DNA of 64,000 nucleotides from Gordius albopunctatus (taxonomy: Eukaryota): positions 4,464,001 through 4,528,000 of the forward strand of contig OZ193910.1 of NCBI GenBank assembly GCA_964276515.1. Reading direction: 5' to 3'. Of this stretch, positions 10,558 to 63,644 are shown piece by piece. The stretch's first letter is position 1; each line of letters starts with the position of its first letter. The position numbers and the translations under genes were made by a program. The notes under the pieces were generated by a model. The model did no database searches. It worked only from the letters and a program-made list of their open reading frames with translations, and had not been told where the DNA came from.

Positions 10558-13500
10558 TCACTTGATTTTTTGGGAATTCTCAGAAGCTCCATTACAAAAG
10601 GACTCTTTATTACAAAATTCCTCATCATTTGGAGGCCGTGTTGAGATTTTGTCGTTGCCTTTGGTCAGCACGGAAGGTCTCTTTACACGAGCGTAAGGTC
10701 CGATAGCTGGATCGAAGATGAAATCGTAGAGGACGCGACACCAAGAGGTGTGGCATGGGAGATCTCGGTAAAATTCTTTAGCAATTTCGGTCACCTACAG
10801 TGTAAAAAATATTTTGTTTTACAAGAAACATACATTCGAAACTTCTTAATCGCAAATCGGATTATCGCGAAAATCTTTTAATCGCGAAGTTAACCGCCAT
10901 TTTGTTTTTTTAAACGATAATATTAACAAAAACATCGTTTATTGACAAATCGCTTAATAGTAAAATATCGGATATTCACAAACATTTTCGAGTCCTTAAA
11001 TCAACCATATAATTATATAAAATATCGTTTTATTGAGAAGCTTAAGAAATGAATATTTAATTTAATGTACATATACTTTTATTTCCATCGTTTAATCGCA
11101 AAATATCGGTTAATCTCGAAAAAAATTCAGGCCCAAGGCTTTGCAATTAAACGGTTTTGACTGTAATATGTAAGTTAGTGTCTTTGGATATCAACAACAA
11201 ACAGTTGGGGCTTGTCTTAATATCGGATTTCGCTGCGCAACAAAAATAGTTGTGCGGGTTATAACGGATAGCCGTGTCTTAACCATGAAATTGAATCGGA
11301 TATGTAGTCAAAGATAAATTCGCGGGATTTGAATCTGAATCCGATATTAAGAGAAGCCCTTAGAGGTGTGGTTGAAAGCAATAGATGCTTCAAAAATGAC
11401 ATCGTCCTCAAATGAATAACGCAATGTCATTATTCATAATAAAAATTCATAATATATATCCATTTGGACAATTATATTAAAATCAAATAATCAATTGAAT
11501 TTAGTTAGTTGATGTCATACGTCTTCGTACAAATAAACTTTTTTAATTAAAAAAATGATATTTTTCTTAGAAAATAAGAGAGCCAAGTCAAAGACATAAA
11601 CTATTGCAAGTACTAAACAATAAAGTACTGAAGCATATAAATGGCGAATAAAAATGACTTTATAACAATTACTTGTGGTAATTTACAGCCTGCTACGTTG
11701 GGAAAATCGTGATGCTCCATATGGTACCTAACAAAATTTGAATTTGACAAAACTATATATCAAAAACTTGATAAATATCAAAAAATAAGATGCGCAAAAA
11801 ACGACTTAATTTTAAGTAGCACATTGCCACTGAAAGTTGTGTAAGATTAAATGCGCTCAATGACGAACTTAGCAGAGACCAGAAATACCATTGTCTTAAA
11901 TTTTGACTTTCGGGCGGGCCCAGGGTGGCACCGTAACAACATTTGGGCAATGTATTATATTGCTTTTGTGCATAATTTGTCACTGTTTAATTTGATTTTA
12001 TAATGTTTGTTAATAGTAGTTTGTATCAAAAAAAATCGGGCAGCTTTTATAAGGCGGACACATAGAAGGGCTCGGGTGGGCAGATCAATTATAAAATAAA
12101 CAAATCTGACCTCTGCAACTTATTGCACTAAACTCGACCTCATATTTGAATGCACAACCGTACTCCTTCGTTCTCGCTCAGGCAAAACATAGTTTTCAAC
12201 TAACATTAAAATGTTGTCTCTACAATACGCACAATTGCAGCTCGCTCTACTTCCCACACAAATGATTGCGTACAATGTTTCAAATGAGTTGTGGACGACG
12301 AGACAAAGGTAACGAATTTTCCAAGATCCAGGACCATGGGAAAAATTGGAAAATCAGGTGGGGACAAAATAATATTTTTAAATTGAGAAAAAGGGAGAGG
12401 GGGGGGAATCTGCCCCCTGCATAAGCTCAGAGCCGGGCTATAACGAGCATAAACCTTTGACACAACAAGTAATGCCTCAATATGCCAATACCGTCCAGCG
12501 TAATATTCAATTTTTCACTATCTAAACGGTCCACCCCCCTCCCGCCCGTAACTCGAGCATGCGGGACTTTAATAGACATTTTAGGGAAAATCGACGCCAG
12601 ATTAAATTATTGTCAGCCTAAAATGCATCAATTAATACATATGGGTTATTGTCGAGCCTTTAAGCTTTTAATCATAAAAGCACTTTATCCGTTTTATCAC
12701 CTTTTCAATTTCAAGGTTCTCGCCACAATATTTATTCAAGTATTTAAAACGTACAAAATATCTAAATTAATCGGTCAAACAAGAATCTAACAAAATTGGA
12801 CCTGGTTAGAGGGAACGCACGGTCACATATTAACTTAAGAGGGCGCCATCATCTTTTCACTATACACTAAAATTAAGGAAACTCCGATTTTTTTCATTTT
12901 TTAATTAACCTATATGTCCTGTAACCCGAAATTTTATAAAATAAAAATTTTTTGGGCACTGGGAGAAATTAAATGTCATTAGATCCTGAAAGTCTAAACT
13001 AAATATATCACCTGTAAAATCAACAACTAACCCAACGTTAAAAGTTATGGCATTAAGGGAGCCGTAATAAGAGTAAGTTTCGTAGCCTTTGGCAAACATG
13101 TAATGTTCCGAGATGAAATGACCGGCCACGGGGTGCAGGCCCATAGACATGAGAGAACCGCCAAGCAAGTAAAACAACGCTTTGGGACCGAGGTAATAAG
13201 TCAGGAGGCAATCGAAGCTTAATTGGGTGCAGAGATTCAAGATTTCTAGGCCGGTCACCGGCTTGGGTCGCGTTATGATCGGGCGTAAAGCGTAAAAAAA
13301 TGGCTGAAACACGACCCACACGAATTTGGTGAACGTTCTGTTGAAGAGCTTAGCTTCCAATTGGCACGGGATATCAACGTCTAATTCGTCGTCTCCCTGA
13401 AAAATAACCTGTATAGCAGCAATTTCTAACTGAGCCAAGTGAATTTGGTGAGGTATTTTACAAGTCCGGTTTTGGAAATAGTGAGTTGGATAGCAAAGAC

Positions 13501-15322
13501 TTTAAATGCTATAACTTATTTAAAAGCACGAGTTCAATTTTTTCTTGGTATTAAAAACGGGATTATATTAATATTAAAAAGTCGGTCGATTCAGTTAATT
13601 ACATAATATTACTATTATAATAAAAAAAATCACACAAAAATGGTCTGCTATAATGGCCAACAAAAAGCTCTTCTATTTTAAAATTATATTCTTGCTTTTT
13701 ACATAGATCTTAAGAAAACAAGATTATCCCTTTATTAACTAGTAATAATACGGCTTATTGATTAAAATAATGGCCCATTCCATGTCTATTCGTCAAAAAA
13801 AAGACGATTTTCGACCGACCATCTCAGATCAGGATAATTTTTGGCGATGGTGTAGGCCTCGTTTATTGGATTAATTTCTGAAAAGTTTAGCCATTTTGGG
13901 CAAATAATTTTTAAGTTAGGGCCAAAATCCCGTTAGGTAGCGTTTTATGGATTTTACCATATTTTTGAAAGTAATTGCGTTATTCACTCAGAAATTAATC
14001 CAATAAATGAGGCCTACACCTTCACCAAAAATTATCCTGATCTGAAATGGTTGGTCAAAAAGGTTTTGATTTGTTGTGGAATGATTTTTAGCAAACAAAA
14101 TTAAATTACTAAAATTTAATATCATTTATATTTTTTGATAACCAAATGTTTATTTTAGAGGCTTGCAAATGTAGTGTTTTCCATTTCGTTGTTTATAGCT
14201 TTTCTTGGCTCTTGAACCAAAAAAATCCAAGGCTAAATAAGTTGTGTTGGTTAACATATAAAATTGCTAAAAAGGTTTGCCTCAACAATATACATTATAA
14301 ATTCTTGCCTACTCACTTTTGATTTTCTTATAATAAACCTTGAAAAACAGGGTTTTTTATAAAACATAAACACTAACTTGGTATCTGTGATGATCCATAT
14401 GATATTTTTTAAAGGCAGCAGAATAAGGGATGGCTACAGGTAGGTTAGCAAATATTTCAAATAAACGATTCCTCCAAGCCCTGCAATGCCCAAAAGCCAT
14501 GTTGTGTGATATCTCATGGATAGCCAAAGTCATTGAATGATTTATTGTCTGGAGCCAGCAAACAAAAAATGACGATACAATTAAAATTATAATATGCTTT
14601 GTAAATTTTGTAACATGTTAGTAAATATTTAGAAAAACATGTTTAAAATTTGGCCCAAAAATGCTTATTAAAAATTCTAAAATTGTATTTGCCAGGTTAA
14701 TTGCTAGGGAATGAAATTAAGTTGTAAAATCAGGTATTTTAAAATTATAACAATTTAATATATATCTAGCTTATTATTTTAAAAACTAAGTTATAATTTA
14801 AATTACATTTACTCTTTAAATAGAGTTTAATTGATTATAATAAATTATAAAGTGTGTATGCTAAGTAATTTATAAAAATATGATGTTTTCCAGATATTTG
14901 TTTTAAAATCTAAATGATTGCTTCTATAATAAATTAATATTTAACTGATACTATATTCATTTCTTTTAATATCTAATAAAACTTCAAAAATAATCTTATA
15001 AAAACTTCTTATAAGATGCATTGCAAAAAAGTCAAAAAAATGACTTACTCCTCCTATAATGTATGCTAGCAGAACAACATAAAACCATGGCAAATCTCTA
15101 ATAAGATAGCAAGAAATAAATTGGAAAATCATCATAGCTATAACTATGTATTTCAGTCTTGTATCATGCCCCATTAACTTTTTTATTTCTGGATATTTTT
15201 CTATAAATTTATAGGCATATATGATTGGATACAAACATACGAAGAATTTCTTTTCTTCTCGTTGCATGAGGCTCGTCTGTATATACCCATTCAAAATCCG
15301 TCCTAGATACTTTCTGTCCCAT
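10558..15322 (-). CDS. DEGS1: Sphingolipid delta(4)-desaturase (DES1 family), 6 coding exons
   Basis: GT-AG exons 15322-15241, 15200-15049, 14548-14378, 13396-13032, 11727-11673, 10794-10558. N-terminus [27 protein letters not shown]; His boxes [35 protein letters not shown]. Confidence 0.95.
10833..11162. mobile_element. Tc1/pogo-type MITE in the last DEGS intron
   Basis: Degenerate TIRs cattcgaaacttcttaatcgcaaa / ttgcaattaaacggttttgactg flanked by TA; internal ttaatcgc repeats. Confidence 0.5.
11208..11359. mobile_element. PIF/Harbinger (Tourist-like) MITE
   Basis: TIR gggcttgtcttaatatcggatt / aatccgatattaagagaagccc; same TIR as 57367-57707, which has a TAA TSD. Confidence 0.75.
13808..14061. 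repeat. Foldback/MITE with ~75-bp inverted arms in DEGS intron 3
   Basis: 13808-13881 (cgaccgaccatctcagatcaggataatttttgg..ggattaatttctga) is a near reverse complement of 13988-14061. Confidence 0.8.
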
Positions 15323-15554
15323 TTTGAAGCAAGAAACGTGACTCCTCAAACGACGACGTTTCTCAAAACATATGTTCAAAAAGGCTTTTCATAACATAGC
15401 GATAGCATAGTCACCCAATCTATGAACGCTAAAAGATAGAAAATGTTTAGATTGAATATATAATTATATTTCTTTAGTTAAAATGAAGTGTGTAATCTAA
15501 AAATATAAAATCGATATTGACATAACGTAAGTTATGAGTTAAAATAAAGCCTAC

Positions 15555-17283
15555 CAGGGAAAGAGGGAATCCCGCCAGTATACCAACTGAACTCACTCAT
15601 TGCCGGATGGGCAAGCAAAATGAGTAGAATGGAAGCGCTTTTGGAGTCAAGGCTTCCGGGTCCCCCTACCGTTAGAGAAACAAGACGACCCCCACCACTG
15701 GATCGAAGAGACCACGCGACGTCGTCTCAAATGTATGAGTCGGTTTCAAGGTTGGAAGAAGAAAATATTGTTACAAAGTGCTACCGATGGGGCTGGATTC
15801 TCCCCCTACGTCTTACAGCAGATAATTCTGGACCTCTGCAGCAAATCCGTGACGACATGTCGATACAACGTATACTTGAACGACGTCCTAATATACGGGC
15901 CAACGTTCGAAGTGGTAAAAGAAAACACACGGCGTTTTTAAAGAATGTGCATTTTATATATTCATATCAACGAAAAGTTTTTTTTTAATTATTTTTTCTA
16001 TCTAGCGATTCATGATGATATACATCTATATTCCATAATATCTTGCGTATTTATGACATAAGGTTAACATATATAACATTTTGGGTTTCTTCCAAAATCT
16101 TTCTGTATCTTGATATCGCTCATACCAGAAGATTGATTAATGGTGCATGGATGTCATTAGAACCTTCATTACGAGATGTACACATTATAATTTTAGTGGA
16201 GGATTTTATTACTAGCATTTAATTTTATTTTGTCAGAGGGTTTATAACGTTTAACTAAGATAACATAACTTAATTCGGCATATAATTTAATATCGACATA
16301 TGCCACAGTGCACTTACTGGAGCTTAACGATCAATTACGCAAAATTGATCACCATACCTACACAGCAACTGTCTTACCTGGGAATAGACATTAACCTGGT
16401 TAGACACCAGCTCAACATAAACGATAAGTTTTTCGAAAAGATCGACTCGGCCGTTAACATAATGACGCATTTCATCCAAAGTAACACAAAACCTCATCCT
16501 CTGGTATCCCAAATCTGCCTAGGAATTCTAACACACTATATCTACATGGTTACGGGATGGTCCAAATTCCTCTCCCCCTGGTATAACCTGTTTCTAGGAA
16601 ATACGCCCACCACCTTCAACAACCATTGGATGAAGATCAAACTGTTGGAACTACGAGATTGTCTAACCTTCCCCTTCCCGATGCAGATCACGCTATCTCA
16701 CGTAGTGGCTGCGGATGCGTCCACATCTCATCTGGGTATCGCATTCAGGGGCTCGGTGATGTCAATTTCGAAAGCCGACGCCATGGGGGCATTCAGGTGC
16801 CACTCCTTCATACCCACAATTAACCTCCTTGAGATACTGGCAATTCCCCTTGCACTCCTCAGAGTGGAGAGTGAATTCCCAAATATAAAACCGAAAATTT
16901 TTACCGACTCCAAGACAGCCTTTTACATCTTCAAAAAAATATCGGCTCACGCATCCCACCTAGAGGAAGCCTTTACCAAAATATTCCACTATATTGGAGG
17001 AGACAGGATGACAACTATCAATCAGGGTCCCTTAGAGGTGTGCACGGATCAAATTTTTTTGATCCGATCCGAGGGGTTTTTGAAAAATTTCATATCCATC
17101 CGATCCGAGTTTTTTAAAATCTAAATCCGATCCGAGTTTTGACGGATCGGATCGAATGTCGGATCGGATTGATCCGTGCACACCTCTAGGGTCCCTATAG
17201 ATTCCAATCCGGCAGACTTCCCGTCCAGAACGTGGTTACCGGACCAAAACAGATGGAACGACATTAGGGGTTTGATACTCTAA
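15555..17283 (+). mobile_element. Decayed hepadnavirus-like (HEART/DIRS-related) retroelement, copy 1: RT + RNase H
   Basis: YCYKVLPMG/AGFSPYVLQQ..YNVYLNDVLIYG (1-nt frameshift; YLDD changed to YLND). AT-rich insertion ~15942-16300. Then WSLTINYAK..LSYLGI..QICLGILTHY..FLSPWY; RNase H VAADASTSH, INLLEILAI, IKPKIFTDS. After removing the 17033 MITE and a 4-nt duplication it reads RVPIDSNPADFPSR..., stop at 17281-17283. Confidence 0.8.
17033..17188. mobile_element. hAT-type MITE inserted in the RNase H of the hepadna-like element
   Basis: Perfect 20-bp TIR tagaggtgtgcacggatcaa; perfect 8-bp TSD gggtccct at 17025-17032 and 17189-17196; internal gatcc/ggatc repeats. Confidence 0.92.
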
Positions 17284-17428
17284 GCGAAAGTTCGGAACGT
17301 CGCGACCAGAACTACAACCGGAGTGCCAGTGGCTTAAAGACCCAGGTTTATCCTAAGAAACACAGTATAATTGAGAGCCCCTAAATTCCTCAATTATCTT
17401 GTTTCTCTCTCGCTTACTGTCTCTGCGC

Positions 17429-17581
17429 TAGAGCCCTGCAAAGTCACATTTTTTCAACCCGAACCCGACCCGAAAGCGTTTTTAATTTTTCAACCCGAAC
17501 CCGACCCGAAACTATTATAAAATTTTCAACCCGACCCGAAGGTATTTTAAAATTTTCAACCGTAACCCGTGCAGGGCTCTA
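17429..17581. mobile_element. hAT-type MITE
   Basis: Perfect TIR tagagccctgca; perfect 8-bp TSD ctctgcgc at 17421-17428 and 17582-17589; internal ttttcaacccga repeats. Confidence 0.92.
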
Positions 17582-18082
17582 CTCTGCGCCACTCTTGGTA
17601 ACATCTCTGAACTTTCGCTTAATCGTTTATATAATACCCATAAATAATCGCGTTATATATATATGTTTCTAACATACTCGCATATTGATCTTGTTATCAC
17701 ATGAGGAAATATATAAAATAAAATAAAGTATAGAGGTGGGAGATATTACAATATTTATTTTTTTATCAAAATTCTACTTTGAAATATATTTTTATATATC
17801 TTAACTATTATCAGAAAAAACTCCATGTTTACAAACACTTTATAATGTTTCCATATCACAAAAGGTAAGCAATGTATACCTTACAAGTTTTAATATGACC
17901 TTTGTTGAATCCTTTGAGCCTTTTTTCTCCAATATCATACAATTAATAATACTTTTCCCAGATACTCTTTTGTATTATTAAACCTGCAAAATTCTTATAA
18001 ATCATACAGCTTTAAAATTTAAAATAATTCCAACTTTAATTTTAATTATTCAACCTCATCAAGGTTTTCTTTTATTCCACAT

Positions 18083-21000
18083 ATGTTAATCTCTAAACCC
18101 CTATGCCCAACTTGTAAGCGACGAATATGCCTTGATAAACACAATTGTTTCTGGATTCATGGCCCAGTGTCTTCAAAATGCCCTTCTTCAGCCAAATTAC
18201 TTCCACCCTGCTTACCAATTCCACCCCTGGCTTCTAACTTTGAAGAGGCTCCCCTTTTGCCAATCCCTAGCCCCGTCATCCCCCATCCTTACAATGCTCC
18301 CCATCAATTAATCAATCGCCTGACTCATCTTGGAGCAATTCTTTTTTAACAAATCCATTTCCTAATACTATCTCTAGAATCCCAAGAGGAGCCAGACCTT
18401 CCATCCAACAATCTCTGCTAAATATATTCACTTCTATTATCAAAAACCCTTATAACTTAACTAATTGGGACAAACTTTTTAAATTCCCATATTATATCCT
18501 TTATGTTAGGGAACCTAATGAACATAATTTATCAAGCCTCATCAAAGAATCCCTTCTGTGTTTTAATACTGATGATCCCATTACATGCACAAGTAAAACG
18601 AAACCCTTTCCACTGGAATTCACAATTAACCAAACAGCCAAGCACATTTCAAATAAAATCCATAATTTCAATCCAAAAAGTGCCCTTAGAGCTTTTTATG
18701 ATAACAACTCAATTGCCCCTTGTTGCCCTGACTCTTATAGGGAGCTTAATCAAAAACAGCCACCAGCATCCTCAGCCAGTAAATAACCCATAATCTTAAA
18801 TAAATTTGCAATAGGAAAACCAATTTTGTCAAACTAAGTAAAAATATAGTGGTCAGCTATAAAATTCAAGGCAGTATTAAGTCTTTTAAATTGATTATTA
18901 CGATTTTGTTTATTTGTTAGCGAAAATTACCATTTCCTATAAAATCGCTATAATTAAGCGGGTTTTAAATCTAAATAATGCAATCGTACAGACCTGGTTT
19001 CAATTTATAGCCTTTATATTAGTTTCAATAAATTATAAAAATAGTTCTAAATATATTTAATAAATTTAATATCTAAACGTTAAATAAATTTAGCCATACA
19101 ACATGAAATTGTTTTTGATTGCTAATCAATCTAGAAAAAAAAATAACAAAATTAATTTTTATACCCACTAATCCAATAGCGTGACAGAAGTTTTCTCCAA
19201 TTTTAAGGTAAATTACATTTTAGTTAAAATACTAACATTTAACTTAATTTATAACTTTTCAAACCTAACTTTTTATGAATCTAAAAATATAATTTAACAT
19301 GCAAATAACTAACTAATAACGTTTTTGATATTAAAATTTAATCATATATCGTACCTGCCAAAGCATGAAAATGTTATTTTTTAATTATCAATAACGACAA
19401 AGTGGTTGAAAAAATTTAAGATTAAAAATTATTTTACCTTAATTTTCATGATATAAAGATCGAAAATCCATTTTAATAAGCCTTAATTTTTTTCCAGTAT
19501 TAGCTCTATAAATTTTTAAATAGTATTCATTATCGATGAAACCTAATAACAATTCGATGTTATAAACGCATAGCTATGGTGTAGAATAGTGAGGATCAAA
19601 ACCTAGGTTTTGATCAGGCAACCGATGACGCCATCTATATGTTTATAAATTTTGATAAACATATCCCAACACTTTACTCTCGCGCAGTTGGAACCTTTGC
19701 TACTCGTTGCTGTAAATTTTTAACCCTTTCCCCCATTATTGTTTATGTCAAGAAAGGTCTTTCAGGCCCCCAACACTATTGACTTTCCAATTTTTAAACC
19801 TTTTTTAGTTTTAGAGAAGGAAAACATATCCTTTTTGGGATCACCCATTGGCGGTGAAAAATCTCTCTTAAATTTTCTTCATAAGAACCTTGAAATTTTA
19901 AAATCTAAAACGGAACTTTTAAAATGCTTGCCAGCGCATCACTCATTTTACATAATCAAAAACTATTTTAACATCTAAAAGATTAATCATTGTTTTCGCT
20001 CATCTGGCGCATTTTTACACCCAGACGTTTTAAAGTCGTACGAAGGCTTTTTAAAAACGTTATTAGAAAAAATTTAAAATTTAATACTAACAATTGGATT
20101 CAAACATCCCTCCCAACCAAATCTGGAGGATTAGGAATTCGCCCTCCCGGCAGCATATCGCTAGCCGCTTTTATTTCCTTTTTTAAGTCGGTCCAAAACT
20201 TAATTTTTAATCTCATAAAACATGATTCCGACCCCCTGCTAACTCAAGCCTTGGAGCTTTGGAATTTGAATGTCACACCCGAGACCATCCAACCTCAAAG
20301 TACGAGACAAAAGGATTGGGATTCTGGACTAGTATCGCGCTCCGTTGATTACCTCTTATCGAGCAGCGATGATAGCCAGCATTACAACCTTAGGTCCCTC
20401 GCTTTTGACGGTTCCGGTCACGAGTGGCTTGAAGCCTATCCCAGCAAACTTTTGGGAATGCTGCTTGAAGACTTTGAGCTATCATATTCCATAGCTTTAA
20501 GGTTGGGGATTAGTTACAGCAGAGAATTCAACTGTCAAAACTGCCTTACCGTTGTAGACGAATATGCTAGGCACCCTCTACACTGCCTAGCAAACAAATA
20601 TAAATACGTTAGGCACACTAAAGCTAATTTATTAATTCAAGCTGCCCTTAAAAAGGCCAAAATCCCCTCAATCCTTGAGCCGTCCGAGACCTCCCTTGAA
20701 GGTAGGATGCGCCCTGACGGCTCTTCTCTAGTCCCCTGGCAAAATGGCTTATCCCTCAAATGGGATTTTACTTGTATTGACCTTTTTGCATCTTCCCATT
20801 TTAATTACGACCCTATTGCTACAGAAGAAGGGCGTAAAACTACAAAGTATTCTGCCCTTTTGGCATCCAATATTTTTATCCCTGTCGTTGCCACGTGCTC
20901 CGGTTCCTTTGGCAAACAGGCAATGGGGTTTTTTAAAGAAATCGGAAAACGCACCCCGAAATCTAAAATTTCTGCGTCCTTTTTACTCAGGCAACAACTA

Positions 21001-21169
21001 GGGATTCTTGTTGCACGATACAACTTTAAATCCTTTGCCGACTGATGGCCCATTTTAGAAGAGAATGATATAAATCTTTGTATTTAACCAATATGTCTTT
21101 ATTTTTGTATTTCGCTTATTAATGTAACTTTGTTTCTTGAAAATAAACTTTTTAACAAAAAAAAAAAAA
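18083..21169 (+). mobile_element. Decayed CRE-like non-LTR retrotransposon with restriction-like endonuclease; RT core deleted or replaced
   Basis: N-terminal SRIPRGAR..NWDKLFKFP and KSALRAF..ELNQKQPPA (18361-18790). AT-rich interruption to ~19700. Then FLGSPIGG, QTSLPTKSGGLGIR, CCHC knuckle CQNC..HPLHC..RH, and RLE motifs RPDG..WDFTC..KYS..FIPV. AATAAA at 21142 and poly(A) at 21157-21169. Confidence 0.85.
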
Positions 21170-21252
21170 GAAAGGTCCCCTCTAAAAGTGTAGACGATAT
21201 CCCCTTAAGTAAATTCTTTTCCAAGTCTACGTCCCAAATCAACACCCCCAGC

Positions 21253-21835
21253 AACATGAATTCCCCAAATGGCAAAGAGTTCATCGCCGCGAAATCAGGG
21301 GGCAACGCCAAGGATTCGGATTCGGCAATGAGGCTAATCCTGAATAGGCTAGCCGAGATGGACGCAAAGATCGACAACAGGCTTTTGGGAACTATCGGAG
21401 AAACGATCAATGCGGATGATCGGCCGCATTGGGCATCTGCCTAGTGAAAGGGCTAGGGCTGCGAACGTTCCCAGTTCCAATTTTGAAATCCTAAAACTTC
21501 GCCTCAAGGGTTTGAGGGAAGCCATCGAGACGAACTATTCCATGCCGGCACATCAGAAACATGAGGCCGAATTTCTTCTCAGCTTAGGAGATTCCATCAA
21601 CGATTACGACAAAACAATAGACAAGTTCTCGGACTGAGTCCGCACTATAGCCATGGCCTCATATTATGGGTGGCAAGCAGTGACGGGCAAGTCAAGGGAT
21701 TGGGCTGAAAAGATGGGCATGGGCCAATACACGGAGACCGTGCAGCTTTTTAGACAGACTCCTCGGTTCAATGCTCCGAGGAAGAAGGGCTCTTACCAAA
21801 AAGGGCAGGCTCCGTCTAGGACGGAGCGAACGTGA
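21253..21835 (+). pseudogene. gag/core-like ORF (~190 aa; one frameshift, one stop) of the hepadna-like element
   Basis: Three ORF pieces join into MNSPNGK..RLAEMDAKIDNRLLG / ..NFEILKLRLKGLRE..FSD*VRTIAMASYYGWQAV..PRKKGSYQKG. The R..MA..YGW.AV motif recalls DIRS-type Gag; the tail is basic; the 3' end overlaps the start of the pol frame. Confidence 0.55.
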
Positions 21836-22573
21836 ACACGTTAGGACGGTAGCGGCGACCCTCGGCAGCGGTGTTAACCCGCCGAGGTCGGTGAGGGGTG
21901 GTACTATTCCTTCATGGCTTAATAACTACACTGCTATTGCTAGGAATATCGCTGTAAATTCCATCTCTCCCGACGATGGCCCGGAGTTGGAGGAGCCGAT
22001 TTATCCTTCCAACGCGCCGCTACCCGAGCGTACTAATGTGCCGGGGCATCTCCTGGAACAATAGACGGAGGTGGGTCTGGATAGCGACAGCCCACCTATC
22101 ATTAGCGAACCGTCTAATATCCCCTCTTTCCCCTCTCATCCCCTCTCCTCGTTTACTAACTTTATTCGACCATTATCCATTCGGACAACGATCCTCAGAC
22201 CCCACTACATGCAGTCTCGTTTTACCCATAACATCGCCAAACACGGGTTTAAACCCAGATTGTCCCGGGTAGCCATCGCAGCAAACAACGGACGTTATCA
22301 CATCCCACGTTATGTAAAAGCTATCCCCCCAGAACACAAAAGACTTGTGGACGAAGTTATCCTTAGCAATGTGGTTCGGAAGAATTCTTTGGCTATCCCC
22401 TCCCCCATGGACTTTATCCCGAAGAGCGATGGGTCACCCCGTCTGATTGCCGACCTGTCGCAAGTCTCAAAGAACTTCGTCAAGTATCCATTCACCCTTA
22501 AATCCATACCCCTGATCGCATCCTCCTTGTCGGACTCGCTCTTCATGACCAAAATCGATATGAAGTCGGCGTT
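21771..22573 (+). pseudogene. pol N-terminal part (pre-RT region and first RT motifs)
   Basis: ORFs 21771-22064 and 22071-22691 share a frame across one TAG; motifs FTHNIAKHGFKP, SPMDFIPKSDGSPRLIADLSQVSK, MTKIDMKSAL. Confidence 0.8.
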
Positions 22574-22582
22574 GGGCCTCGA

Positions 22583-23694
22583 TCACATGCTTCGTATCAA
22601 ACAGAACCTCGAATGGGTAGGAACCGAGCAGATCTTGGTGAAAGCGAGCTCCAAGTGTGGTGCGTGCGCTGCTCCTTTCTTGATTATATAGAACGCGGTC
22701 TTGGAATCGGTGAGTACCCTTGGTGTAATGTGTGGGGTGTCCACCAGGGCTTTAATATATGCCAGGGGGATAGCAATGAGCTTGAGGAGGTTGATCGTGG
22801 GGATTAGATCGTGGCAGCCGATGACAGCCAACGCATCTCCCTTGGCGACGGAGAGGATGGATCCTCTGTAGAATAAGCCAATGTGTGATGTGGAGGCGTC
22901 TCCGGCTGTGAAACCGTTGGGGTCGTGTTTCATGTTGAAGGGTATTGACAGATGGTTTTGAACCATGAGAACTTTTTTGATCAGCCAGTCCGTGTGGAAA
23001 GCTATAGGATCTCCCGATAGAAGAATGTTATAAGCTGGTGACAGGAACTTGGACCATCCTGTGAGCATATAAATGTAATGCGTGAGAATTGCCAAGCAGG
23101 TTTGTGTTACTAAGGGATGAGGCTTAGTGCCCGTCAGGATGAAGTGGCTTATTATCTGGATCGCTGCGTCGATTTTGGAGATGAATTTTGGATTTACCCT
23201 AAGCGTTTTTTGTTCCAAATCTACCCTAATACCCAGGTAGTCAAGGACCGTGAGCGGCTCCAAGCATGATTTACTACGGTTAATCGTCAGATTCCAAGAC
23301 TTTGCCATGTATAGGAACCTCCGTGTATCGGCTTTTACCAAGGTACTTGAGCGTCCGTATATCAATATATCATCTAAGTACACGTTGTATTTACTTTTCG
23401 TGACCGATTTTTTGCATAAATCCAGCATAACTTGTTGTAGAAAGAAAGGGGAGAATCCAGCACCTATGGGGAGTACCCTGTAAGAATATTTTTGTCTCCT
23501 ATACCGAAACCCAAAGAATTTGGAAGACTCGGGGGCCAGTGGAATGGAGAATAACGCCGACTTCATATCGATTTTGGTCATGAAGAGCGAGTCCGACAAT
23601 GAGGATGCGATCAGGGGTATGGATTTAAGGGTGAATGGATACTTGACGAAGTTCTATGAGACTTGCGACAGGTCGGTAATCAGACGGGGTGACC
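22583..23694 (-). pseudogene. pol RT core + RNase H (inverted segment)
   Basis: KIDMKSALFSIPL, YRVLPIGAGFSPFFLQQ, VYLDDILIYG, LDYLGI, TAGDASTSH, INLLKLIAI, ITPRVLTDS; collinear with copy 1. Confidence 0.9.
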
Positions 23695-23695
23695 A

Positions 23696-23939
23696 TGCGT
23701 TGTGTACGCGTATACAAAATTCAATGATGCGTGTTGATAAATAATAATATATGGGGGAAAGAAATAACAAACACGTACAAGCACTATTTCGTTAATTAGT
23801 ACAAAAGAACTAAGGAATTAAAGAAGGATAATATAAAAAGTTATCGATAAACTACGCGTTGTGTACGCGTATACAAAATTCAATGATGCGTGTTGATAAA
23901 TAATAATATATGGGGAAGAAATTAAAAACACGTACAAGC
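23696..23939. repeat. Direct repeat, two ~85-bp copies about 159 bp apart
   Basis: gcgttgtgtacgcgtatacaaaattcaatgatgcgtgttgataaataataatatatgggg..cacgtacaagc at ~23696-23782 and ~23855-23939. Confidence 0.9.
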
Positions 23940-24779
23940 GCTTGGGGGGGGGAGGAAAGTAACATACATCTAAGGGAAATTAAATGGAAAGGAAAGGAAG
24001 TATACCACAAACGTTGTTTTGCTATATAAATTATTTCTAGAAAATACTATAAGTGATGTGCATGCTCATCGTTATGCCTCGATCATATAATGAGCGATTA
24101 AAATATTATTGTCCTATGGGAAATAATTCACGAACTTAATGTAGAGAGAATTAACACGCTAAATACAAAATATATACACATAAAGCAAAGTACTTAACAT
24201 CAAATTTTTTATTGCTTTGCTTTACACATTTTGCCTATATAAATTTACTGTCAAATAAATTAATACATGCCTAAAGAATTATTTAATTTGTAAATTGCCA
24301 CATATTTGTTTTTTTTATCAAAGGTGCTAAAAACATTTTTTGGTCCTACCGCAAAATCACGATTCTGGCAAATGGCCGTTTTCGGGCTTCAATCATAACC
24401 ACAACCCGCCCTCAAAATCGGTTTTATTTTTAAGCCTGAACATATTTTAGCGCGTCCAGCTTTTCTCTTATTTGGGCAAACTAAAATTCTGCTTACATCA
24501 GCTTAGAAACTTTAGGTATATCATTGGCCGCCAAACGAGCCTTATTGCAATAGGGTCTCATTGTTATCATGTTTTGCTGATATATTGTGTAGTTTAAGCC
24601 AACAGGTACCATTATAGATGTAGCCCGACCATTTACCCTCAATTTTTCCTCCTTTAATTTTTACTATTGCTTAAATTGCATAGAAAATGAATGCTCCCAT
24701 ATTAAGGGGCGGAGCCCCTTGAGTAAGGTTTAGAGGGGTAGCCCCAGTCGGGGTACAGGGGTGAGTCCCTTTGTTTGAA

Positions 24780-25140
24780 TCTTCTTCTATCAGTTATATG
24801 GTCCAACGGTCGTGGGGTTTGTTTTGATAAGTTTCTTGCATCTTGACCGGTTGAGTGCCATGTCTTGACTACTCTTTAGTTTTCATAACTTTATCGCCTT
24901 GCCCGTTCCATGTGACATGGGGTCGTCCTCTTCCTCTCTGTCATTCGTGTCCCCCTTAGTATATCTTCATACCACCTTAACCGATTTTTGTTAATCATGT
25001 CCGCTATAGGTTGAATATTCATTTTTGTAATGAGAAAGTCATTCGTCATATGGTCGAGCTTAGTTTACGCCAAGCTCCACCGTAGAATTCTCATCTCTGT
25101 GGCTTTTATAAGCTTTCCTTCCCTGGTGTTTAATGCCGAT
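24780..25140 (-). mobile_element. Degraded RTE 3' fragment
   Basis: cttcttct tail plus degenerate EMRILRWSL..LDHMTND and RGRP..W coding similarity to the 3' end of the 6643-9733 element. Confidence 0.7.
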
Positions 25141-26229
25141 GCTTATTAATCAATTTTTAATTCCTTAATTAATTATTATCATAATGTCAATTTCGACAAA
25201 AAATAAGGTTTTTTCAAACTCACTTTGTTGTTCACATGTATTCTATCACTATTAAATTATTTTAATAATCCACAGTCGAGGTTTAAAATTCTCCATAAAA
25301 TTACCACTGTCTTACGTAAATTTGTATGAGTAGTTCGGCCCCAGGCGAAAAGCCATTTTGATTTTTGCGCCCAAATCGAGTCCGGATAAACAACAATAAT
25401 CTCGGTTATTTCTGAAACATGCGAATATCCCCTAACTTCCTAAGCAAATCCTCCTTTTCGTTTAATACAGCATTAAAAACTGAGATATTATGAGGGGTCG
25501 TAAAAAAGCATTGCCCACAAACCTTACTTTGGTCAATAAGCTATTAGTGTGTTCAGATAATTCATAAAAACTTAAAGCAACCGGTATAAGCATGGACGTA
25601 GCCAAGTCCCCAAACATTAAGGTCCGTTTTCTTCCCCTGCTTAAATTTCACAGCAAATTAAATGTTTTTCAACGAAGTGTAGAAGAGCTTAGGTTAAAAG
25701 CTCAACAAAAACCAACACGGGGCCTGGGGGCGCTACCTAACACCAAATAACCGAGGACAATAACCTTGTTAGAAGTTAGGGTCGGAGCCCTTCTTAGAGG
25801 TCTGAAGAACTGTGGCACTTTGTTGAAAGTATTTTCATTTTTCTCCTTATTTAACGCGCAAAAAATGACAAAATTAGATTTTTTAATTTATTTAGCCACC
25901 CAGGAGGGGATACTACCGTCCTATAATAATAATTGATGCGAAAAATAAGCAAAAAAATGACTTTGATTTAATATTTCAAATCGTAAAAAGTTTCCATTTT
26001 CCGCAGCATATGCTTACATTTAACACACTGCACTACCTACACGCATGACGGTCTAGAAAATACTATAAGTGAAGTAGATACACTTTTACTAAAGAACTGT
26101 ATATTCAAATTTTCAAAGAACACGATAGACACGCATTACGTCATGAGGTTGCGTTTGATTGACATTTTATTAAACGTCAAAACGTATAGACCTAAATAAC
26201 TTGACCGTCTTATGATTTAGAGATTTGGA

Positions 26230-26797: not shown

Positions 26798-28926
26798 CAT
26801 AGACTGCTCATCACGGTATAAAATGTGTGTTTTTTTCCGCCATTTTGATGAACAATTTATATAGCAATGATTATATAGATTATAGTAATTTTTGTAGATT
26901 AAATTATTTTAAAAAGGTGAATGAAACATTTTGAACTATTAAATATCGACAACAGTATTTTAAAATAGATATTATTAACATATTTCATAAAAATTAATAA
27001 TGTAAAAACTGTAATGATATTAAAATTAACAATTTCGAGCCATCTATATTATGTTTAAAATTTCATTCTAATTAACTAGCGAAAAAGGTAAATCGACTGT
27101 TTATTGACCTAAAATTAAAACATTTTTATTCAATTTATTTCTTATATTTATTCTTAATTTTTGATTTATATTACGGGAATTATTATGAAGAAGGACTTTA
27201 AGATTTTTCAAAACTATTAAATTTATTAAAATTTTCAAATGTGTAAAATCTTCATTAATAAGGTGATTATTTAGTGTTTTTAAAATATTTGAACCGATTA
27301 CATAAGAAACTATTTTATTTAATATAATTAAATTTATGTTTTTTTTATTTAATAAGTTTCTATTTTTAAAATTATTAAAGATAGAGTATGTAATTTTACA
27401 TAATGAAATTAAATCTTTAGATGGATATATTAAGCCAAAATTATTTTTTATATTAATTAAATAATAATTTTTAGTTAGAGAATCATTAGGAATTGATAAA
27501 AAAGAAATGCATTCGATACAGGTCAATTTACCTTTCTCTACTAGCTTTCTTAGAATATAACCAGCAATAAAAACGATAATGTTGTCACAAAAAGCTGGTA
27601 ATTGCGATACATTTAGAATTTCATCGTCCTCGTCATCTATTAGAACATCTTCTTCTTTTCTTCGTTGAAAATCACCACAAATGATAGTATTATCCCCAAA
27701 ATCAAAACAATTGCCGTTGTTATTATTAATGACTCTGGCACACAAAGTGCCCCTTACAGCTGCCCGAAGTTGATAAGCAGAAGGGTTGTTATTAAAACCT
27801 CCTTTGGACCTAATCACAGAAAAGTAAATTTCTAGGTGGTCCTGAGAAAGTTTATAGGTTTTTAGATATCTTAACACAAATTAATTATAAATATATATAT
27901 TGTACTTTGCCGGTGTGTTAGCATTAATCAAAATATCTTCTGCTAACAAAGGAATAGAGTGCATAGCTGATATAAGACCAACTATAGGTATTTTTTTATT
28001 TGAAGTGTAAATCAAGGTTCCATTCTGAAACTTCAATTGTGCCAGGTACTTTATCATCTTCTGGTAGAAGCTTTTCAGGAGGTCCAATGACTCCTTGAAG
28101 ATTGGGGCCTTCCAACCTTTTGCCAAAACATTTCTACTGTTTAAAGTATCAAACAGCCTGGATTGATATAATAAATATATCATAATATTAATAAATGAGA
28201 AATATTCATACTTATTTATTAATAAAATAAAGGAGACTGTTGCTTCTGAGTCCTCAAACCCAGGTTCTTTGGATTCCCTGGCCAACATAATCCCCTTGGC
28301 CACAGAGGCTGAAAAAACTTGAGCTTCCTTTTCTTGGGAACTGGTTTGTAATAGTTTGTTGAATCATTCAAGGGAGTTGCTTTTGAGTTATAGGCTTGTC
28401 TTTTTGGTGTATCTTTCTAATAAATTATGTATTAATAAATACAAGAAAGTGTAAATAATTTGAATAAAAACAACCAATATAAATAATTTGAATAAAAACA
28501 ACCAATAAAGGATAATTAGGCTTACATAGCTTGGAAAGTTAAATATTGTGGGAACTGCATTTTCTCTTAATTGATGATAATTTGTTGAAGAGGGGTAAAA
28601 GTCTTGTGATCTGAAATGATACGAACACACGCGAGAATGTTCCTTAATTTCAAAATCTCGTTTAATATTGGGAATCCACGCTTTTAAAAGCTGTGGATTC
28701 TTTACTGGAAACCTAAAAAAATTTAAAAATATACTTTATCTAGTAATATATTACTTACTTATGGAAAGAAAACTTTCGGTCTTTACCTCTCTCGTTCGTA
28801 CAGAATGGCACCGAGCAATAAGACATTATGTGAGCATATGTGAGATAGTACGCTGTTGTTAATCAAAATGGCGGAATAAAACACACACATTTTGCCATAT
28901 GGTACATATGACATGAGCAGTCTATG
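26798..28926 (-). mobile_element. P-element/THAP9-like DNA transposon, internally deleted
   Basis: 14-bp TIR catagactgctcat / atgagcagtctatg plus subterminal inverted aaaatgtgtg..ccgccattttgat; no clear TSD. Confidence 0.88.
27101..28826 (-). pseudogene. THAP-domain P-element transposase with introns; central region deleted
   Basis: MSYCSVPFC..FHK|FP..AW..VCSYHF..LRENAVPTIF (C2CH THAP). KRK is fused directly to AQVFSASVA. Then LFDTLNS, YLKTYKLSQDHLEIYFSVIRSKGGFNNNP, FIAGYILRK..CIEC..GLIYPS. Confidence 0.9.
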
Positions 28927-31599: not shown

Positions 31600-32345
31600 C
31601 AAAGAATTGTGTCTAGAAAATAACATTGTAAAATGATAAGTTAATATTGTACATATTTTAAGGAACATTTATGGCTTTAAAACTTGTAAAAGGATGAATT
31701 TTAAATAGAATTTATTTTTGGTTAAATATATTAAAACAAAGTAATATTATCGCGTCTACAATAATATAAGTTATTGTTGTAAAATGGGCTGGTTTTTGTT
31801 TGGTCGACCTTTGGTTTTAGTCGACTAATCATAAACAAACTAAATATTTCTTGTCTGTTTTAGTAAAGGTTTTTAGGTCAAACCTATGGGTTGTTTATAT
31901 TATGTCGACTAAAATCCAGCCTTTTTTACAACACTAATCTAAATATACAGGTATTGCATATTGTCATTACTGGTTGAATAAAAAGATCTTATTTAATGTA
32001 TTTTTTTAAAATAAGATGGTATTTATTATATATTGAAATTTTCCAACTATTTGATTTTGCTTGATTTGTCTTTTTAATAACTATCTTAAATATCTACTTT
32101 ATTTTGTATCTGCTCACAACTTTAATTATTTCCTAAAACCAAATACGACGAAATTTCAATTAACTTTAAACCCAGGAAAAAACTAACGATCTATTATCAA
32201 GGCCTTTCAACAAGTGTACTCCAATTTCATGTTTAACATTGAACCTTAGAGTCAATAACTCTCAAACATTGTATCTCAAAATAGTATCATTTGTCCAAAT
32301 GTATCATTCTTCACAACCTAATTTTTCAATAAGGTATCTTTGCAG

Positions 32346-33294
32346 ATGAAATTTACCATGTTTGCCTGTCTGTATATTCTTGGATTAGTTGCTGGATTAA
32401 ATGGTAAGCCCTAATTTTTTTGTGTTTAATATTATATATATATAAAAGGAATTTCTATCAAGCCAACTAATAAAAGTGAGCAAGTTTTTAAATTAACTTC
32501 TAAGCAATTTTTTATTATTGTATCCTCTTTCATTGCATTTACTCTTCAGTAACGGCTAAACGAGGTAAATGTCATATAAATTATAAGCGCTTTTATCTTC
32601 CTTTAGCTATTGAAACAAATGATTTTATGCTTGTTCTTAATCCCTAGGTTACTATTTTCCCTATTATCCACATTTTCCCCCTACGTCATCTACATCAAGT
32701 ATTTAATATCAATATTTAATTACAAATTACGAAAAAAATTAACTGCAATTTTGTTTATGCACAGGCAGTTTGACTAGCGATAGCTCCAATTGTGCGAACA
32801 TTACTTGTCCACAACTAAGTCTAATCTTTACTCTCCCAAATGGTTGTATACGGTGTAAGAATGAGAAGCATTTCTTTCTTATTTCTTTCCCTATATAGTA
32901 TAATAAAATCTTAATGAATTCGTAGGTTTTGCTCCAGGACAGAGGATCAACGTAATTTTTGATTTTACAATAATATAAAAGTTAGAATACACTTTTGAAT
33001 AAAAGAGTTCCTTTTTAAAAATTTATTTTTCGATCTTAATTAAATGATAAACTATAATTTAAATGGGGCTATTACATGGCATTAGGTATAAAAACCAATG
33101 TTGATTTAAAAGGATGAAATAGTTCGAATGTTCTGGAATTAAGATAAAATGTACTATGAATCAATCTACGGTGAAGAATATATAATTTATTGTAAATAAA
33201 AATATATAATGTTTGCTAGGGCGTTAGTTTGTATATAATATTTAATTCTGTGTAATTACTTTAGATTTAAACTTATTACTTTATTAGGTCAACA
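32346..33294 (+). pseudogene. Small secreted micro-exon peptide gene A, copy 1 (last exon truncated by RTE sequence)
   Basis: GT-AG exons 32346-32403, 32449-32475, 32550-32564, 32648-32698, 32765-32854, 32926-32951 encode MKFTMFACLYILGLVAGLNG-ISIKPTNK-ITAKR-GYYFPYYPHFPPTSSTS-SSLTSDSSNCANITCPQLSLIFTLPNGCIR-CFAPGQRIN. Confidence 0.65.
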
Positions 33295-33825
33295 TATGCA
33301 GCAGGAAAGAATTCAAATATCTTGGTTCTAGGGTACAATGTGATGGAGGTGTGGAAAACGAAATTAAGGTAAGAATAAACGCAGGCTGGCTAAAATTCAG
33401 GGAGTTGAGTGGTGTCCTATGTGACAAGCACATACCACTCAAATTGAAAGGGCGATTATATAACACCGTTATTGTACCCACGGTATTGTATAGAGCGGAA
33501 ACCTAGGCAATTAGGCGAAAAGAGGAGCAAAGCTTGGCTACAATCGAGATGCGAATGTTAAGATGGATCTTGGGAATAAGCAAAAAGGACCATATAAGGA
33601 ATCAAGACATAAGGGATAAACTAAATGTAGTTCCAATTCATAGAAAGTTGGTGGTAAGAAGATTGAGATGGTATGGCCATTTGGAGAGACGGGAGGAAAG
33701 TCACTTGGCAAACCGTATCAAGAAAGTGCAAGAACGTAAGCGAAAGAGAGAGAGACCTAAACTGACATGGAAGCATAAAATAGATATGGACTTGAGAAGT
33801 TACGAGCTAAAGCGAAGCTGGTGTA
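33295..33825 (+). mobile_element. RTE 3' fragment (duplicated at 42816-43346)
   Basis: EFKYLGS..INAGWLKFRELSGVLCDK..EMRMLRW..RLRWYGHL; one in-frame stop; logical continuation of 30356-31599. Confidence 0.9.
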
Positions 33826-35730
33826 TAGTGTTGCGATCTCGTCTCGGTCTCGAAAACAAAATCTCATCTCGTTTCGGGAGCGATTATGAAAATCTCGATC
33901 TCATCTCGGTCTAGAAAAATCTCGGTTTCGTCTCGAATTTTTTTTTAAAAATATATACGGAATAAAAATCTCTGTTGTTTTATTAAAAATATTAAATAAG
34001 TGTTAAAAATCCAAATGGCAAACTTCTATATTTTTAAAAAAACTTTTAATACACAAACCTTTTAAAGATTTAGCGGGACACGACATCTCCTTCACAATAT
34101 AAAGATATTAATTAATTCATAAAGAAAATATTTCTATGGAAAGTGCAAACTAAAAATAAATTTGAAGTATATAAAATTAAATTTTATTTTTCTAGCAAAC
34201 TATAACATTTGTATCAAATTCACTTTGTTTGTCAACTCTAAATAGACTGAGAAAATTATAAGTTCGCTTATAGTTGACTTAGTTGCACAATTCAGCAAAT
34301 TTAGACCCGTTATTAACCCTGGCTAAAGCTTCAAAGTCCTTACCATATTTAAAGCAACGTTTAAGTCCATTGATATTACCATCATCAATTATAGCCCATA
34401 GTGTTTATTGCATGTTCACTATAACGTTACAAACCACAAAGTGCGAGCGATAAACTAGTTGTAAATTTATAAAAACAACAAAAAAAGCAGCATTATATAG
34501 GATTAAGAACATAAGGTTTTAAACCTTAAATTAAAGTGCACGTATTTAAATTTGTGGCAAAAATCATTATAATCAAATTCATATTCCAAATAATTACCTT
34601 CCAATCCTAACTAACTTTGCCATTAAATAGTTATTTATCGAATACAATGAATATGTTCGTGTATTTATTTTATATTGCAAAATTATAGAAATTATAGTAA
34701 ATTTGAATGCACCTGCCAACCTAGCTTGTAATGTGAAAAGTAATGCGTATGAAAAAACTATGTATTCACGTAATGTCTTATTAAGGTTCAAATTTATAAT
34801 TACCGCATCATGCAGGATGAGTAACTGCAAAATTCAAATATGTTTTAGTAATATTTACTATTCTACCACAACTCATTCTAAGCTTAAACTTTTGTAATAT
34901 TTAATAATGCTATGGATATAAATATGTGATAAATATATTATACAATTATTCACATACCCTAAAAGTCAACCATACTTAGGTAATGATTGCAAAATTTTTA
35001 ATTGTTTGCAAAATATATATAATATTTACAACATTTCGGAATTTTTTTAATATCAAATATATTCCATTATATATTGATTTACACTTAATACCTGTAAATA
35101 AGAAAGATAAAATAAAATACGATTAATTGTTACTTATATTTAAATTATTATTATTTCAAGGGTTACGTTACTATTATCTTTTAGTCTTACCTTATTTTTC
35201 CATTTAATTATAATCGTCTTTAGAATGTTTAGAACTATTTAGAAATCCAATTTATATCATTTATTCATGACTCATATTTAACTGGCATCCCAATAGAATT
35301 GCTACGCGATATGATAATTATGAGAACAAAGGAACGCGGAGGGAGATATGATGTTGGGAGGCACGTGATTACAACATGGAAACACTCGTATGTATTACTA
35401 CGCTTCTAACAAAGCGATGCGAGAGAGATGATGAGGGGAATACCCGTGTTAGCATATCAATACAATAAATCGAGGAGATAGATGAGGGGGGGATACGCGT
35501 TTGAGGCATCTGTAGTATGCAACTACAACAATACCTTAAATGTCAATCATGCAAATCAAAAGACACAATAATTTAATAAAATCTAACGATGAATAAAAAG
35601 TTGAGATCTCGCCGAAAAAATCTCGTATCGTCTCGTCTCAACATCAAAATTCTCGTCTCGATCTCGACTCCATCTTTGAAATTCTGTCTCGGTCGAGACC
35701 GAGATTTTTCTCGGTTTTTCCGCATCACTA
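33826..35730. mobile_element. Non-autonomous hAT-type element (duplicated at 43347-45235)
   Basis: TIR tagtgttgcg / cgcatcacta; 8-bp TSD ctggtgta / ctggtata; tctcg subterminal arrays; no transposase ORF. Confidence 0.85.
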
Positions 35731-35831
35731 CTGGTATAAGTGCAGGAATACATGGAGAACCTACTTGAAGGAGCTGACCACTAAATGTGACAAACACCTA
35801 TAGGAAAAAAAATGTTATAGAACTCGACTAA

Positions 35832-38693: not shown

Positions 38694-39352
38694 TTAGCAT
38701 TGTGTGCACCCATCAGGGAGTATAAAGACCGCTCTGCCTGGTGGACAAAAAATGTTGGCACAATTATAACGCGCTACCGTGGTATCGCTACCTATGAAAA
38801 CATAATTAATATAGTTTAAATATTTGTAACGTCGTAAGTATACAATTAGAGTTAGTATTGATAAAATATTACTAGTTGTTGTACCGGGCGCGTTTGTTGC
38901 CACCGAGTTTTGAAAGATGTAATTATAATAACCTTTAAATAATCAAATTAAAATGATTATACGCTATGATTTGAAAGAAGTTGATTAATCAAACAATAAA
39001 TTATAAATCTTCTAAAATATTAAAGAGATTATATAAACTTTTAAAATGTAACGTTTGATTTATCATTTATTAAAAAAGTTCAAGCATTTAGACAAACTAT
39101 CACATTGGCTTTTATGTAAGAATACTTAAAAATCTAATTAATGTTATTATTACCTCTCTTTGCCGCATCTAAAATAGTCAATATTTAGAGAATTTAGAAC
39201 GTTATAATCTAATTGAATAACATATTAGATACTTTCTTTTGGTCCTTTAAGTGCCAAACCTAAATAAATGAATGTTGACTTGCGATAATTTATGGATTCT
39301 TACCATTCAGTCCAACTAACAACATGAAGACGATATATATTGTGTAAAACAT
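38694..39352 (-). pseudogene. Small secreted micro-exon peptide gene B, copy 1 (acceptor of the 18-nt exon changed AG>AC)
   Basis: Paralogue of gene A: MFYTIYIVFMLLVGLNG-LALKGPKE-NAAKR-..-YYNYIFQNSVATNAPGTTT-SDTTVARYNCANIFCPPGRAVFILPDGCTQC. Could still be expressed by skipping the symmetric exon. Confidence 0.6.
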
Positions 39353-63601: not shown

Positions 63602-63644
63602 TGATTTTCTTTATTTAATTTTAATGTTGAAAGGAAAATGCTAT

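Follow-up and report, generated by a model that had tools for sequence, protein, structure and literature searches.

The 64,000-nucleotide (nt) stretch of Gordius albopunctatus DNA analyzed here (contig OZ193910.1, positions 4,464,001 to 4,528,000; hereafter the window, to which all coordinates refer) contains, at 21170..23694, a damaged retroelement, copy 1, that comprises an open reading frame (ORF), ORF1, and a polymerase (pol) gene with a reverse transcriptase (RT) domain and an RNase H domain. On balance, we favor the interpretation that copy 1 belongs to a repeated two-gene retroelement that diverged early within a DIRS-like radiation, on its hepadnavirus/HEART side, is copied within an ORF1 particle and enters chromosomes through host break repair. 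The element probably represents an undescribed, early-branching lineage of the HEART-like grade, and its pol likely branches closer to the hepatitis B viruses than do the pols of ordinary DIRS transposons.

The two genes are arranged in copy 1 as follows.

21170..21835, plus strand: ORF1, gag-like by position, helical, with a basic C-terminal tail; no Pfam family
21684..22573, plus strand: 5' part of pol, with a leader rich in proline, serine and acidic residues, a pre-RT segment and the RT motifs as far as KIDMKSA; aligns with pols from Gordionus
22574..23694, minus strand: inverted part of pol, with RT (YLDD), thumb/connection and RNase H; open frame 22586-23653

All the motifs listed in an earlier note on this DNA, which had described a retroelement with a hepadnavirus-like polymerase, were located: YGW (21665-21673) within ORF1, NIAKHGFKP (22230-22256) in the pre-RT segment and RLIADLSQVSK (22440-22472) in pol, on the plus strand; and, on the minus strand, KIDMKSALFSIPL (23537-23575), LPIGAGFSPFFL (23438-23473), YLDD (23369-23380), QTCLAILTHY (23075-23104), LSPAY (23030-23044), AGDASTSH (22883-22906) and ITPRVLTDS (22703-22729). 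The overlap of a gag-like ORF with pol described in the same note was also recovered, the pol frame being open from 21684 and the ORF1 frame ending at 21835. The 356-amino acid (aa) minus-strand frame matches Pfam RVT_1 (E 2.8e-17), and the RNase H is truncated ahead of its last motif. For comparison, we used contigs from two sequencing runs (X1 and X2) of one study, which possibly represent the source sample and are not independent. The pol of copy 1 contains a stop codon at 22062-22064, where 27 X1 contigs have another letter. ORF1 is split into three ORF pieces (21088-21444, 21353-21637 and 21638-21835), with a frame change near 21420-21445 and a stop at 21635-21637, and its 5' end is cut by the 13-A poly(A) (21157-21169) of an upstream element resembling non-long terminal repeat (non-LTR) retrotransposons; another ORF1 copy, with 89% identity, is found among the contigs of the runs.

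The phylogenetic position of the element was assessed with FastTree on 107 rows and IQ-TREE (LG+C20) on subsets, using RT plus RNase H unless stated otherwise; the references included hepadnavirus P proteins from 16/17 loci and a search with duck hepatitis B virus (HBV), as well as Ngaro-type and other recombinase-bearing pols from a metagenome scan. In the FastTree tree, the element lineage joins the hepadnaviruses and a set of RT-RNase H pols denoted 'short' hereafter. A clade of this composition was recovered at 95/88 with 53 rows, 94/87 with 45 rows, 95/90 with 50 rows (two rows omitted) and a Shimodaira-Hasegawa (SH) value of 91 with 37 rows; the same grouping was obtained from thumb plus RNase H (98/98) and, with 11 of the 13 'short' pols, from the RT only (90/78). 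The hepadnaviruses themselves form a 100/100 clade that excludes the element, in both the RT plus RNase H and the RT trees, and the gypsy rows are separated at 100/100 (45-row tree). The branching order within the clade varies: the element is the sister group to the hepadnaviruses together with the long-branch P0085 (90/72; 45 rows), is unresolved with 50 rows, and is the sister group to all other members with 37 rows (84), a topology that is retained on testing (p 0.287). The approximately unbiased (AU) test rejected a single clade with the 13 DIRS-type rows, DIRS of the methyltransferase type (p 0.016).

In a HMMER scan of 1.84 billion protein representatives with the copy 1 pol as the query, 4961 proteins were detected at E up to 0.001 and 2 at E up to 1e-30. 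The sole close relatives, which by themselves make a nematomorph host likely, are three uncharacterized RT-RNase H proteins of the horsehair worm Gordionus sp. m RMFG-2023 (XP_065317776.1, XP_065315139.1 and CAK9296138.1, denoted P0001-P0003; E 1e-56, 6e-51 and 3e-28), which are 35-50% identical to the element, contain the same RT and RNase H motifs and form one clade with it at 100/99; they differ from it in being unannotated gene models, known here from the protein sequence alone. P0001 is an unbroken 473-aa pol, with the C-terminus 11 aa past the last RNase H motif. Apart from these three proteins, the 150 best matches comprise DIRS-type pols, a small number of LTR-type pols and the 'short' pols, which end at NPADxPSR and have a short RNase H region. 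When the 356-aa pol was used as the query of a word-index search for homologs, no match was returned; scans of viral contigs for relatives retrieved just two distant LTR-type loci, and those with a proto-nackednavirus motif or an Ngaro query retrieved nothing; and no nackedna- or proto-nackednavirus was present among the best 120 of 368 matches in the duck HBV search. Among the proteins compared are mostly unnamed RT-RNase H pols with an RNase H of hepadnavirus length, many on contigs of 2-4 kilobases (kb) (P0008, P0011, P0012, P0015, P0024, P0036, P0085, P0111, P0126, P0127, P0145, P0149 and P0163-P0173); this set, with one member from a sea spider and one from a barnacle, groups with the hepadnaviruses and may greatly extend HEART.

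A second, diverged member of the family, copy 2, is located at 15553-17620 and oriented like copy 1.

15553..15741, plus strand: 5' remnant, with an ORF1-like coiled-coil stretch recognized by eye and a step in guanine-plus-cytosine (GC) content; an internal deletion joins the remnant to mid-RT
15742..17285, plus strand: pol, with mid-RT, thumb, RNase H, the final motif and a stop
17286..17620, plus strand: 3' region of about 330 nt, with a second miniature inverted-repeat transposable element (MITE) at 17428-17581 and a weak hairpin (fold z -2.2)

Copy 2 shares 52% aa identity with copy 1 over 230 aa and 63% over 54 aa; it carries the internal deletion and three insertions, among them an AT-rich insert (15951-16293) and a MITE with an 8-bp target duplication (17030-17191) within pol, and tblastn found no match to the start of the RT in it. 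The last RNase H motif, of the NPADxPSR type, is retained at 17206-17229 and is followed by the stop. In the 3' region, the longest stop-free stretch is 38 aa before the MITE and 58 aa after it, and past 17620, about 330 nt beyond pol, the GC content drops to the host level. Over 230 codons, copies 1 and 2 show identities of 0.61/0.72/0.33 at the three codon positions, as is typical of replicating lineages that have long been under purifying selection. In each run, a contig joins sequence resembling the left edge of copy 2 (15553) to its 3' region (17325) on the opposite strand, possibly a terminal structure or an inversion at another locus.

Beyond ORF1 and pol, no further genes of the element were detected. 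The earlier note had seen no terminal protein, and a profile of 13 hepadnavirus P N-termini, which recognized all three held-out P proteins, likewise yielded no match in the window or in P0001, P0002 and P0151. No hepadnavirus core was found with an 11-sequence core profile or Pfam, a weak test because cores diverge strongly, that of Pliego virus being merely 10-12% identical to known cores (PMC11551314). A tyrosine recombinase profile, with which 15 of 29 held-out control loci reach at least 25 bits, had no match in the six frames of the window; moreover, there is no room for a recombinase gene between ORF1 and the RT in copy 1 or after pol in copy 2, where host-like GC content begins after about 330 nt and the intervening segment is therefore too short. 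What is shown is the lack of a recombinase in two damaged copies; the family as a whole presumably lacks one as well. An integrase was likewise found nowhere in the window. Pfam detected no integrase or aspartic protease in the element frames, no LTR pair was found at the element, and neither a target duplication nor a terminal repeat (inverted with an internal complementary region or split direct) was found around copies 1 and 2, the ends of which may be lost. A methyltransferase is absent, P0001 and copy 2 stopping no more than about 20 aa from the last RNase H motif, and the element lineage has no match to Pfam Dam, unlike the DIRS-type matches. No Rfam family matched within 15300-25500. 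A Pfam search with ORF1 assigned no family, and comparison of ORF1 and the 3' regions with 141 loci and 301 proteins gave, apart from the motif that ends the RNase H, a single match of 17 aa (E 0.003).

Several observations weigh against a placement next to the hepadnaviruses. The hepadnavirus RT profile gives the element 64 bits, compared with 68 for DIRS RTs and 71 for the 'short' pols, and the hepadnavirus thumb plus RNase H profile gives 13 for the element, 12 for DIRS, 19 for Ngaro, 23 for the other recombinase-bearing group and 36 for the 'short' pols. The domain spacing is DIRS-like, the acidic residues of the RNase H being 64-65 aa apart, compared with 48-55 in hepadnaviruses and 55-68 in DIRS. 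The trees contain long branches, their reference rows are mostly matches to the same query, the group labels are our own and based on motifs, and the rows do not include HEART, nackednavirus, proto-nackednavirus or VIPER/TATE sequences; within these trees, the AU test does not reject a single clade that unites the element with Ngaro plus the other group bearing a recombinase (p 0.159 and 0.089). The top Atlas clusters for P0001 are dominated by Euglenozoa, with Protein P at rank 20. The recombinase-bearing VIPER is reported to group with hepadnaviruses by its RNase H (PMC6681497). Furthermore, both copies are damaged and a non-LTR-like element lies close behind copy 2, such that a recombinase may have been lost here, and the element is seen in damaged copies and short contigs, with no full-length copy, RNA or circular form among them.

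Against this background, the label 'hepadnavirus-like polymerase' in the earlier note is overstated: it is consistent with the tree grouping and the shared motifs, but these motifs are few, the profile scores are neutral, the spacing is DIRS-like and Pfam DNA_pol_viral_C matches neither the pol frames of the element nor its Gordionus relatives. The proposal of a new lineage between DIRS elements and hepadna-/nackednaviruses fares better in that the element groups with hepadnaviruses and HEART-like pols in each tree; of the two placements that were to be checked against it, nesting within DIRS is rejected and kinship on the Ngaro side is not. The suggestion in the same note that ORF1 may be an unknown capsid gained no support from the Pfam and core profile searches, which test it weakly.

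A possible, if unlikely, alternative is that the element belongs with the tyrosine-recombinase retrotransposons, as a divergent relative of Ngaro or VIPER, its recombinase being missing from the two damaged copies or supplied in trans. The retained AU topologies, the spacing and profile scores and the Euglenozoa-dominated clusters fit this interpretation, as do dozens of related contigs with a transposon-like spread and the overlap of ORF1 with pol which, like the YGW motif, looks DIRS-like. So does the NPADxPSR end: among the matches listed, 30 of 44 control loci with this motif carry a recombinase (the metagenome scan returned at least 120 loci, of which 103 were parsed and 44 had 1 kb downstream). 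However, none of the best trees places the element there, there is no room for a recombinase in either copy at the positions examined above and no trace of one in the 64 kb, and no terminal repeats were found; a pipeline survey found DIRS elements in none of four nematomorph genomes (10.1101/2024.06.11.598342), a weak argument. As a marker of hepadnaviruses, NPADxPSR, with 13 viral-contig matches that are all genomes of 3.0-3.4 kb, was rejected given the same metagenome scan. Four metagenome elements (L043, L050, L064 and L023) combine ORF1, a pol ending in NPADxPSR and a recombinase directly after it; three of these, together with P0033 and P0133, form a group apart from Ngaro and DIRS.

A less probable alternative is that the copies are integrated fossils of a free, non-enveloped worm virus, a proto-blubervirus without a terminal protein, with ORF1 as its capsid and integration by accident. 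The rearranged and truncated copies without target duplications, the two deeply diverged lineages under purifying selection and the unit length near 3 kb are all compatible with such a virus. So, in predicted structures, is the match of P0001 to hepadnavirus P, which counts equally for the placement that we favor. The P0001 model (pLDDT, the predicted local distance difference test score, of 91; 49.5 in a model built with 7 sequences) best superposes on an unnamed 634-aa viral protein (A0A3S9H6R8; template modeling score, TM, 0.66), and compares with HBV P at TM 0.62 and a root mean square deviation (rmsd) of 4.6 over its length; caulimoviral and retroviral pols reach TM of at most 0.57, with rmsd of about 10-12 for full-length matches, and matches in PDB are of the Ortervirales type only (TM up to 0.52). 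No DIRS models are among the listed structural matches, so that this comparison cannot separate hepadnavirus from DIRS kinship, a further caution against the hepadnavirus-side placement. Conversely, the virus scenario is at odds with the failure of the terminal protein profile, despite its three positive controls, and of the 11-sequence core profile, with the many related genomic contigs and the lack of any episomal form among the sequences seen, and with the RT itself, in which the blubervirus signatures of published mBio alignments are replaced by DIRS/gypsy-type motifs.

The inverted block at 22574-23694 proposed in the earlier note is borne out: an inversion divides the pol of copy 1, and the run contigs include colinear copies. 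The inversion is flanked by a 142-nt inverted duplication, the arms of which differ at 3 of 142 positions.

22432..22573, plus strand: left arm, at the inversion breakpoint
23553..23694, minus strand: right arm, partner of the left arm

One contig is identical to 22544-22820 and has 30 letters on the short side of the junction, one short of the 31-letter rule for spanning. In X2 record 9, the 5' part of pol is colinear with the 3' part (about 83-85% identity), and of the 15 opposite-strand joints shown, with 17 further ones not shown, five fit colinear copies; the inversion is therefore private to copy 1. It was likely a later accident, a staggered-break event that also removed the end of the RNase H. 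L1-style twin priming was considered and rejected, as 3'-ward ends meet at the junction, with neither a poly(A) nor a target duplication bordering it. In X1, contig cover reaches 42 at the end of ORF1 and the pol leader (21779-22166) and is mostly 2-10 over RT and RNase H, depth that was not summed into a copy number; given this unevenness, derivatives of the element without pol may be numerous. An assembly artefact as the source of the inversion and duplication, with an ordinary DIRS fragment as the pol, is very improbable: the single junction contig falls one letter below the rule and the source sample may itself have yielded the runs, but the arms differ from each other, the junction contig matches without a difference and DIRS membership is rejected by the AU test.

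Under the interpretation that we favor, a two-gene retroelement on the hepadnavirus/HEART side, one RNA would yield ORF1 and, via the overlap, pol, and RT and RNase H would copy this RNA inside an ORF1 particle. Because no terminal protein was found, priming would be by nucleic acid instead. The DNA product would perhaps be linear, on the model of the linear DNA form of DIRS-1 (PMC7192593). Given that the two copies contain no integration enzyme, insertion would likely depend on host DNA repair, that is, entry at chromosome breaks, or else on a recombinase borrowed in trans. Hepadnaviruses and endogenous caulimovirids enter chromosomes by host break repair.

A spliced gene resembling sphingolipid delta-4 desaturase (12905-15322, minus strand, start at 15322; Pfam Lipid_DES, E 2e-5) shows that this is an animal-type nuclear locus; copy 2 sits 230 nt upstream of its start. 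Two repeats adjoin copy 1.

18023..21169, plus strand: non-LTR-like element, unrelated and high-copy, interrupted, between the two copies, with ORFs and high contig depth; its poly(A) abuts copy 1
23692..23942, strand not set: two-unit direct repeat with about 159-nt spacing, also elsewhere in the organism (up to 28 X1 contigs)

The non-LTR-like element has no Pfam match and no target duplication, and contains what is presumably an endonuclease-like motif; related pieces lie near 40369-40737 and 49838-50206. The direct repeat may be the 3' region of the retroelement or an unrelated repeat, no contig shown linking it to pol. Elsewhere in the window are a 1001-aa open non-LTR ORF with endonuclease and RT domains (6654-9659, minus strand), THAP9/P-like transposase pieces (27101-28735, minus strand), a tandem segmental repeat of about 9.5 kb with RTE-type fragments (31600-50889; 99-100% identical, possibly genuine, possibly produced by the assembly), and a hAT-like transposase, part of which is duplicated in inverted orientation (61911-63949).

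For the origin of the hepatitis B viruses, a path from HEART retroelements through proto-nackednaviruses to enveloped viruses has been proposed (PMC12691608). We tentatively suggest, as a possibility we would not count as likely, that the element in horsehair worms is a living-fossil stage between DIRS-like transposons and these viruses, in which the recombinase and methyltransferase are already lost, the terminal protein is not yet gained, the particle is a DIRS-style one made by ORF1 and unintegrated DNA enters chromosomes accidentally. If so, it would be the earliest branch of HEART/Blubervirales, and the root of the hepadnaviruses would lie among the recombinase retrotransposons. With a multi-copy lineage of DIRS-like anatomy in a sequenced horsehair worm, its YxDD pol intact and its ORF1 present, two questions would become testable: did loss of the recombinase precede gain of the terminal protein, and is a DIRS-type ORF1 the ancestor of the hepadnavirus core? 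On the same branch, our search brought to light the 'short' RT-RNase H pols, a broad group most members of which are unnamed.

HEART retroelements were reportedly described by Gong and Han in 2018, and the supplements of that work, or Repbase, may already list elements of this kind. We found no paper on the element lineage in the literature outside subscription journals and bioRxiv supplements, and the words 'Gordionus' and 'Nematomorph' are absent from ten mBio supplements, the long tree lines of which are covered in part. HEART retroelements, which like the element are RT-RNase H elements of invertebrate genomes, lie near Blubervirales; HEART is recorded in few, often damaged copies, with an unresolved way of moving (PMC12440569). 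In seven Ixodes HEART rows, xxDN replaces YxDD and the B motif reads PFG (PMC12691608, data set S6), whereas the element has YLDD and P[IM]GA[GS]FSP, a comparison made by eye for these seven rows only; the 'short' pols resemble the same rows by eye, although the latter carry xxDN. The 'short' pols, such as Nymphon striatum 'Protein P' (KAG1654248.1), an Amphibalanus polyprotein and proteins from Logan, ENA and JGI, belong to the same clade as the element and share with it an acidic or proline-rich leader before the RT and the NPADxPSR end, and their profile scores the element lineage best; they differ in a shorter connection and RNase H, and several match Pfam DNA_pol_viral_C, in contrast to the element lineage. 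With DIRS/PAT, Ngaro and VIPER/TATE, the element shares the ORF1-pol overlap, the pre-RT segment and the domain spacing, and Ngaro-type elements likewise have no methyltransferase and end in NPADxPSR; the recombinase, methyltransferase and terminal repeats of these groups were not found at the element copies, and a clade with DIRS is rejected.

Identity with a blubervirus was rejected, there being no terminal protein, no core match, DIRS-like spacing and a profile score no better than that of DIRS; the element further differs from Blubervirales in belonging to a chromosomal repeat family, in having YLDD rather than YMDD, and in having SPxxxIPKxDG and FFGF where blubervirus has TGxxFLVxKN and LxxSDG. 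Nevertheless, R[LVI]I[AS]D[LF]S.VS[KR] of the element resembles RLVVDFSQFS[KR] of Blubervirales, PMG.G.SP, DAS.[ST]H and NPAD.PSR are shared as well, and the arrangement of RT and RNase H appears alike in the structural models.

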